Assembly (NCBI RefSeq): GCF_003334385.1
Contig: NZ_QOWN01000104.1
DNA: 1,986 nucleotides
Strand: one strand, 5' to 3'
Source of the DNA: Escherichia coli
GTDB taxonomy: Bacteria > Pseudomonadota > Gammaproteobacteria > Enterobacterales > Enterobacteriaceae
In this document: positions 1,739 to 1,845 of the stretch, piece by piece
Position numbering within the stretch: the stretch's first letter is position 1
Layout: every line of letters starts with the position of its first letter
Translations under genes and position numbers: made by a program
The notes under the pieces: model-generated
Database searches by the model: none
Seen by the model: only the letters and a program-made list of their open reading frames with translations
Told to the model about the DNA's origin: nothing

Positions 1739-1747
1739 TGTTATAAT
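1739..1747 (+). promoter_or_regulatory. Candidate sigma70 extended -10 promoter element (TGn-TATAAT)
   Basis: TGT at 1739-1741 is followed by a perfect TATAAT at 1742-1747. No good -35 hexamer at 16-18 bp spacing (TTTATC at 1721-1726 is the closest, 3/6 match with a 15-bp spacer), but extended -10 promoters often lack one. Predicted start around 1753-1756. The element lies in a non-coding, AT-rich spacer. Confidence 0.4.
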
Positions 1748-1753
1748 TCGCAG

Positions 1754-1845
1754 GTTCATCCGCCTCATGTGATGAACTGCGTTTGAGGAAACGTAAAGTT
1801 ACACTGTCCTGAAGCCCGTGGCGTCACTGCTGCGGGCTTTTTTTT
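1754..1845 (+). ncRNA. Hypothetical small RNA or orphan transcription unit (~90 nt) between lom and stf
   Basis: Bounded by the extended -10 element (1739-1747) and the intrinsic terminator (1812-1845). No ORF with an RBS lies inside. A 5' hairpin is predicted from the inverted repeat GTTCATC (1754-1760) / GATGAAC (1771-1777) with a 10-nt loop. This is a prediction from sequence only. Confidence 0.3.
1812..1845 (+). terminator. Rho-independent terminator downstream of lom, immediately upstream of the stf RBS
   Basis: AAGCCCG (1812-1818) pairs with CGGGCTT (1833-1839). The stem can extend inward with G-U wobbles (CCCGTGGCG 1815-1823 against TGCTGCGGG 1828-1836) around a TCAC loop (1824-1827). 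It is followed by a run of eight T (1838-1845). No T-run on the complementary side. Confidence 0.8.

Follow-up and report, generated by a model that had tools for sequence, protein, structure and literature searches.

The window considered here, the whole 1,986-nt stretch of Escherichia coli DNA that was analysed (contig NZ_QOWN01000104.1 of assembly GCF_003334385.1), carries between the prophage genes lom and stf a 151-bp spacer (1708-1858) which holds what appears, from its sequence, to be a credible and previously unreported candidate for a small RNA (sRNA) gene. The window matches GenBank AF151091.1, the P-EibA prophage of E. coli ECOR-9, at 100% identity. The reading put forward, tentatively, is that of a stand-alone RNA of ~90 nt which runs from an extended -10 element to the lom terminator, in the layout of a type I sRNA of the 3′ untranslated region (3′UTR), and in which positions 1778-1810 are the functional part. 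Such a small-RNA unit and a passive 3′UTR with its terminator are judged to be about equally likely.

In the proposed arrangement, the non-coding unit would sit between the lom stop codon and lom's own terminator. An extended -10 element lacking a -35 (1739-1747) would start transcription near G1754, and termination within the U-run, at about 1843-1845, would yield an RNA of ~90 nt made up of a variable 5′ hairpin, the near-invariant segment 1778-1810, and the terminator hairpin with its U-tail. The terminator, predicted to be shared between lom and the candidate unit, would also keep lysogenic transcription out of the late gene stf, and Q-modified late transcription would pass through it. We infer from the sequence that the promoter may fire, that a discrete RNA may accumulate, and that 1778-1810 may base pair in trans.

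A non-coding block of ~125 bp (1720-1842) is a conservation island. Pairwise comparison of three lineages with the long type of spacer (P-EibA, Sp9 of strain Sakai, and STEC17-190) gives identities of 56-78% over lom, 73-78% over the last 100 nt of lom, 42-58% over the first 12 nt of the spacer (1708-1719, the variable 5′ end that lies outside the conserved block), and 70-86% over the first 128 nt of stf. Inside the block, identity is 79-88% in 1720-1753, 83-100% in hairpin 1 (1754-1777), 97-100% in 1778-1810, and 89-95% in the terminator. Variable sites were counted over 44 unique variants that include the flanks, leaving aside 1796-1815, which the search pattern had fixed. They amount to 77% at the lom end, 75% in 1708-1719 (9 of 12), 21% in 1720-1738 (4 of 19), 44% in the -10 element (1739-1747), 50% in 1748-1753, 38% in hairpin 1 (9 of 24), 6% in 1778-1795 (1 of 18), 15% in 1816-1842, 69% in 1843-1858 (11 of 16), and 87% in stf. 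The island, which runs from about 34 nt before the predicted start site to the terminator, is thus bordered by segments of lom, stf, and the outer spacer in which 69-87% of the sites vary. Since these boundaries are the footprint expected of a promoter and its transcript, they support a small-RNA unit, and they are the strongest argument for a stand-alone RNA.

The same island could also belong to a passive lom 3′UTR whose terminator insulates stf, a serious possibility. Under this explanation, the extended -10 is an unused, inherited relic, the extra ~87 nt of the long spacer are neutral DNA, possibly left behind when the ancestral spacer was partially duplicated, and the apparent conservation stems from few lineages, recombination, and constraint on the terminator. 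Indeed, only three to four independent lineages underlie the island, and lambdoid mosaicism could yield a local patch of identity, both of which count against a stand-alone RNA; mosaic patches of 100-300 bp are common in the region. A terminator role nevertheless leaves unexplained why 1778-1810 is 97-100% identical beside flanks at 56-86%, and why conservation sets in at 1720 when the 12 nt that directly follow the stop codon vary freely.

The second line of evidence for the stand-alone RNA comes from the putative promoter. A preliminary description of this DNA, made from the letters alone, had claimed a perfect extended -10 at 1739-1747, and the element is there: TGTTATAAT is the only match to TGNTATAAT on both strands of the window, against a chance expectation of 0.06, and 11 of 200 shuffled windows contain at least one such match. 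It combines a TGn with a TATAAT-like hexamer that has the -11A and the -7T, and we infer that it could act as an extended -10 sigma-70 promoter. The commonest allele reads TGTTATGAT and a third lineage TGGTATAAT. The form TGnTAT(A/G)AT is retained in 154 of 155 copies, with the TG and positions -12, -11, -10, -8, and -7 kept, and these same positions are invariant in 43 of the 44 unique variants; the "n", position -9, and the two bases past the hexamer have two to three alleles each. This preservation of the critical positions favours a promoter in a way that is suggestive only.

Several features of the motif weigh against a stand-alone RNA. A test of the critical positions is marginal (~0.06, a hypergeometric calculation made by hand with one degenerate copy excluded), and a Fisher test that includes the degenerate copy gives 0.46. 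Upstream, the conserved A+T-rich zone 1720-1738 covers positions -35 to -16 without a recognisable -35 hexamer, and for this reason a two-hexamer sigma-70 promoter scan of the window returned no match. The motif also appears to have been inherited. TGTTATGAC stands directly upstream of the terminator in lambda, Rac, and other short spacers, and since lambda and Rac carry it in this place, the -10-like motif is ancestral and lies outside the extra DNA. Having come from the short spacer, it need not be selected as a promoter, as a passive 3′UTR would have it, and the single copy in which the -10 has been lost retains the remainder of the block. What a passive 3′UTR fails to account for is the direction of change. 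The short-allele motif lacks the -7 T and has substitutions at the TG and at -12, and a shift towards consensus is seen only in long alleles, from TATGAC to TATGAT to TATAAT (-7 C to T, then -9 G to A).

The origin of the long spacer bears on both explanations. Junctions between lom and stf were collected from Sakai, K-12, E2348/69, GenBank phages, and 80 IMG/VR contigs (n = 96), and their spacers fall into two discrete classes, of 63-67 bp (54 of 96) and of 150-152 bp (38 of 96), the remaining lengths being due only to insertion sequence (IS) insertions or assembly chimeras. The lambda lom-orf401 spacer measures 64 bp (J02459 19586-19649), and so do those of K-12 Rac and of Sakai Sp10, Sp11, Sp12, Sp14, and Sp15, so that the contrast of 151 bp with roughly 65 bp in lambda, drawn in the preliminary description, is borne out. 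Its proposal that the unit had been inserted at a moron site does not survive. Sakai Sp9 (long) and Sp10 (short) are near-identical in mid-lom and again from about 100 bp into stf, and between these points they diverge over a cassette of ~350 bp that takes in ~80 bp at the end of lom, the spacer, and ~100 bp at the start of stf. Because the adjoining ends of lom and stf diverge as well, the long allele is not a clean insertion, and the model of a simple insertion is ruled out; the ancestral -10-like motif speaks against it too.

Each half of the long spacer (Sp9 allele) aligns to the short spacer, with scores reached by 0 and 1 of 1000 shuffles, which fits a diverged partial duplication of an ancestral unit of motif plus terminator, as judged from the alignments, and which a passive 3′UTR would accommodate readily. 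The two halves give no significant alignment with each other, and the tandem-duplication model is for that reason only indirectly supported. A bolder and rather unlikely extension is that a new sRNA gene was born here, through partial duplication of the terminator region and point changes that made the inherited TGTTATGAC a consensus extended -10, and that host or phage RNAs are targeted in trans by its segment 1778-1810, perhaps with a chaperone other than Hfq.

The ~350-bp cassette, centred on the spacer in otherwise near-identical surroundings, is also what might be seen if the block were a conserved element at a module boundary that works as DNA or in cis, either as a recombination linker for swaps of tail-fibre modules or as a protein-bound site, and producing no stand-alone RNA. 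We regard this as improbable. It is in line with the joining of lom alleles at 56-78% identity to stf alleles at 70-86% by way of a segment of 94% identity or more, and with a constant context, as lom lies upstream and stf downstream on the same strand in 156 of 161 copies. A linker predicts neither the promoter-to-terminator footprint nor the selective preservation of the -10, however, and phages with the short spacer swap the same modules without the block, in which neither a repeat nor a known protein-binding motif was seen.

The far end of the candidate unit is its firmest part. The segment 1811-1845 consists of a G+C-rich stem-loop followed by a U-run, the build of an intrinsic terminator, and that it acts as one is essentially certain. 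The stem (1811-1840, loop 1823-1828) has 12-13 bp and a folding free energy of -20.1 kcal/mol (z -5.9), and the run of eight T occupies 1838-1845, its first three T also closing the stem. The terminator thereby lies 64 nt downstream of the -10, close to the ~65 bp given earlier. Recurrent substitutions at 1823 and 1825 fall in the loop, the length of the T-run varies, and the base of the 3′ arm is altered only in rare single variants.

The order of promoter, structured leader, terminator, Shine-Dalgarno sequence, and stf ATG would suit an attenuator in which the promoter drives stf and the terminator is conditional. Constrained and nascent folds argue against this arrangement, which is very improbable: with the 3′ arm blocked, or in a nascent RNA of 1754-1828, the 5′ arm of the terminator forms a small local hairpin and no antiterminator pairing arises, and it is this want of an upstream partner that makes an attenuator unlikely. 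Furthermore, with -20 kcal/mol and eight U the terminator ranks as very strong, no Rfam leader or riboswitch family was matched, and stf, according to established lambda biology, is among the late genes that Q antitermination serves.

For the body of the stand-alone RNA, the structural record is less favourable. RNA 1754-1848 (z-score -3.7) folds into two hairpins, hairpin 1 at 1754-1777 and hairpin 2 at 1778-1795, followed by an unpaired stretch and the terminator. The 5′ stem-loop predicted earlier at 1754-1777, the 5′ end of the RNA if transcription starts near G1754, recurs in both the minimum free energy and the centroid folds. The core 1778-1810, the most conserved part and the candidate seed or binding region, has two alternative folds: hairpin 2 (1778-1795) with 1796-1810 single-stranded, or an AGGA/UCCU helix (1786-1810). 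The latter, a different middle helix, is the one preferred by the RNAalifold consensus. Hairpin 1 can be extended to 1750-1780 through GCA/UGC pairs of 1750-1752 with 1778-1780, leaving 1753 bulged. The extension competes with hairpin 2 and requires an RNA whose 5′ end lies upstream of 1754, such as a lom read-through transcript, so that lom-derived and promoter-derived RNAs would fold differently.

A number of structural results tell against the stand-alone RNA and are compatible with a passive 3′UTR. Without the terminator, 1754-1810 has a z-score of -1.8 (-1.2 to -2.0 in the other alleles), so the -3.7 of the whole unit comes mostly from the terminator, and the 5′ hairpins are predicted by these folds to be only marginally stable. 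RNAalifold applied to 11 distinct sequences of low diversity found none of 29 pairs altered on both sides, and the covariation term is only -0.5 kcal/mol. In hairpin 2, one lineage has an uncompensated U1783C. Changes in the hairpin 1 stem are confined to U-A to U-G, and the top of this hairpin is variable. Because diversity is low, the test for compensatory change has little power; covariation is weak evidence either way and gives no positive support to the 5′ helices. The suggestion that conservation would be accompanied by compensatory changes in both stems has thus held for its first half, the conserved block, and not for its second.

The expression record points the same way. Sakai Sp9 (NC_002695.2 1798916-1799066) and prophage PP6 of strain E2348/69 (NC_011601.1 1470637-1470787) carry an identical copy of the common long allele, with TATGAT. 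[quoted passage not shown] In EPEC RNA sequencing, lom and stf are nearly silent, with baseMean values of about 2 and 7, respectively. Neither a transcription start nor a Northern band or Hfq peak has been recorded for the block. All of these results weigh against a stand-alone RNA, and the missing record in two well-studied carriers, together with the lack of covariation, constitutes the strongest arguments for a passive 3′UTR.

The published negatives have a defined reach, which a passive 3′UTR cannot claim beyond: they cover the TATGAT allele, a few growth conditions, and Hfq-centred methods. They are accordingly no direct test of the perfect TATAAT allele of this window. On the small-RNA reading, the TATGAT allele would probably be expressed weakly or only under certain conditions, and TATAAT alleles more strongly. 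Likewise, the absence of Hfq binding holds for published catalogues and for the common allele only, and is compatible with weak or conditional binding. Of the sRNA-gene layout proposed in the preliminary description, then, the promoter-to-terminator order and the conserved module stand, and an expression record and compensatory changes are what it lacks. Its statement that the unit holds no credible open reading frame (ORF) agrees with the ORF list, in which no + strand ORF of at least 20 aa lies within 1740-1858.

The sole RNA trace is a single chimera from RNase E crosslinking, ligation, and sequencing of hybrids (CLASH) in Sakai, in which the 3′ end of MicF is joined to ATGGGGTGAACTGCGT with a read count of 1 (PMC5286369). 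The read, annotated as ECs1808 5′UTR, covers window positions 1767-1782 and represents + strand RNA from hairpin 1. It is probably noise, because the 9-bp pairing needs a GGGG that is absent from the P-EibA allele. The NC_002695.1 coordinates used in the Tree-laboratory papers are about 140 nt lower near Sp9 than those of NC_002695.2, an offset inferred by hand from the same read and relevant to placing published EcOnc, transcription start, or Term-seq positions on the current RefSeq sequence. A phage-internal antisense target was considered and rejected: in the remainder of a complete 50-kb carrier phage, the longest stretch complementary to the candidate RNA is 13 nt, formed by the terminator and U-run, and at least 13 nt were reached in 21 of 200 shuffled controls, leaving no above-chance target within this phage.

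The long form is widespread. Of 5426 complete E. coli genomes, 1640 have it, mostly once per genome and with ~1950 copies in all, and it is present also in apparently intact phages such as PhiR5_1. The five exceptions among the 161 copies examined for context are contig ends or decayed prophages, and decayed prophages that lack lom or stf still retain the block. In one of these (L156, 7932-9010), a deletion joins the major capsid gene E to the last lom codons, and in another (L116, 7240-7600), stf has been replaced by IS1; the block is kept in both. Several independent copies carry an IS200C-family element just past the T-run and before the stf ribosome-binding site, with the block intact, as in IMGVR_UViG_2563366803_000005 and L019 1631-2340 (block variants b9 and b13). 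When 100,044 species, each with one representative genome, were scanned with a 20-mer from the core, one contig matched, JAIJJM010000250.1 (4349 bp, positions 2681-2700, - strand), from an actinobacterial gut metagenome-assembled genome named "Collinsella sp." This contig is most likely a mis-binned piece of an E. coli phage, and with its only match in the species set a probable binning contaminant, the block is in effect a feature of E. coli prophages only.

The architecture proposed for the stand-alone RNA resembles that of type I 3′UTR-derived sRNAs, such as DapZ and MicL, which have their own promoter near the end of an mRNA gene and share its terminator. Like them, the block has a promoter-like element upstream of the parent gene's terminator, a long U-tail, a predicted length of ~90 nt, and a conserved internal segment as a possible seed; unlike them, its putative promoter lies past the stop codon rather than in the coding sequence. 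A homologue is the lom terminator of lambda and Rac, with which the block has in common the TGTTATGA(C/T) motif, the GCCCG...CGGGC stem, the T-run, and the stf ribosome-binding region, and which likewise insulates stf from lom. The long form differs in about 87 extra nt (hairpins 1 and 2 and the core), a longer stem, and a -10 of TATGAT or TATAAT. A further prophage sRNA is IpeX of DLP12, which like the candidate RNA is encoded just downstream of an outer-membrane-protein gene in a lambdoid prophage, in its case the porin gene nmpC. It is longer than the candidate RNA and has experimental support, and Rfam gave no match between IpeX and the block.

No known RNA family accounts for the block. 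Permissive scans of three alleles against Rfam 15, a search that the preliminary description had proposed, gave best scores of 15-20 bits against thresholds of 39-50 and nothing above a gathering threshold, and the AgvB and AsxR models had no match in any of the three. For the two alleles other than that of the window, the best hit, far below threshold, is the Qrr family, with 19-20 bits where the gathering score is 50; it spans about 1756-1846 of the window, nearly the predicted transcript, and is a resemblance of shape only. Nor does the block belong to any of the prophage sRNA families alluded to earlier; it is distinct from HnrS, from PasB/EcOnc22-24, and from AgvB/AsxR.

These RNAs were set apart largely by position, with EcOnc positions taken from Table S2 of Tree et al. 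(2014; PMC4104026) and placed on the Sakai genome. HnrS (66 nt), which is the same as EcOnc10-12 (bioRxiv 10.1101/2025.11.27.690950), is ruled out because it lies between the Rz/endopeptidase and terminase genes of Sp9, Sp10, and Sp12. AgvB, AsxR, and HnrS resemble the block in being prophage-borne, short, and terminator-ended, and the AgvB/AsxR anti-sRNAs also in combining a conserved 3′ part with a variable 5′ part. They differ from it in their location, downstream of PR′ or stx or between Rz and terminase genes, and in being abundant Hfq ligands of 51-66 nt.

EcOnc22-24 (~85 nt, Hfq-dependent) have a fitting size but are antisense RNAs of the I-J spacer. The same holds for PasB of EPEC, an 83-nt, single-copy RNA of the structural operon with a broad distribution, which is located at 1466261-1466343 on the - strand between I and J of PP6 (PMC8550237, Table S6) and which was ruled out on this ground; the PP6 lom-stf spacer lies about 4.3-4.5 kb downstream of it, on the sense strand. 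PasB/EcOnc22-24 and the block are found in the same lambdoid prophages (E2348/69 PP6), in the neighbourhood of the late operon, with similar size and an intrinsic terminator. Both are usually single-copy and occur also in strains that belong neither to EPEC nor to enterohaemorrhagic E. coli (EHEC). In contrast to the block, PasB/EcOnc22-24 are antisense to tail genes, are unrelated to it in sequence, and are backed by Northern blots and Hfq data. Over 71 nt, PasB shares 82% identity with the Sakai EcOnc22-24 region, in the same antisense I-J position (Sp15, Sp14, and Sp11). Table S6 of PMC8550237 gives EHEC homologues for PasA and PasD1 and none for PasB, and PhiR5_1 keeps only a 25-nt terminator part of PasB.

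If expressed, the block would be a widespread prophage regulatory RNA overlooked by current annotation and Rfam, as about 30% of the complete E. coli genomes carry it, those of O157:H7 Sakai (Sp9), EPEC E2348/69 (PP6), and many commensal and extraintestinal strains among them. It would lie beside lom, a classic site of lysogenic conversion, and offer a traceable example of an sRNA gene arising from a terminator region, adding one more prophage-encoded sRNA rather than a system without precedent. Should expression be absent, the locus would show that an sRNA gene cannot be deduced from a perfect extended -10 with a terminator behind it, and a near-invariant 33-nt segment at a phage module boundary would remain to be explained.

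The surrounding genes are those of a lambdoid tail region. In the window lie the 3′ end of J, which is the tail-tip gene and extends to 1040, and lom (1108-1707, + strand), annotated in AF151091.1 and encoding an Ail/Lom outer-membrane beta-barrel protein of 199 aa. The gene after the spacer is an orf-401-like side-tail-fibre gene, stf. Its Shine-Dalgarno sequence GGGAG (1848-1852) and ATG (1859-1861) lie outside the block, in variable sequence. J is followed by another intrinsic terminator (1059-1078 and a T-run) within the J-lom spacer (1041-1107), which leaves only ~30 nt up to the lom start codon. Between P-EibA and Sakai Sp9, the J-lom spacer is 98.5% identical, while identity in the 5′ part of lom falls to about 65-70%.

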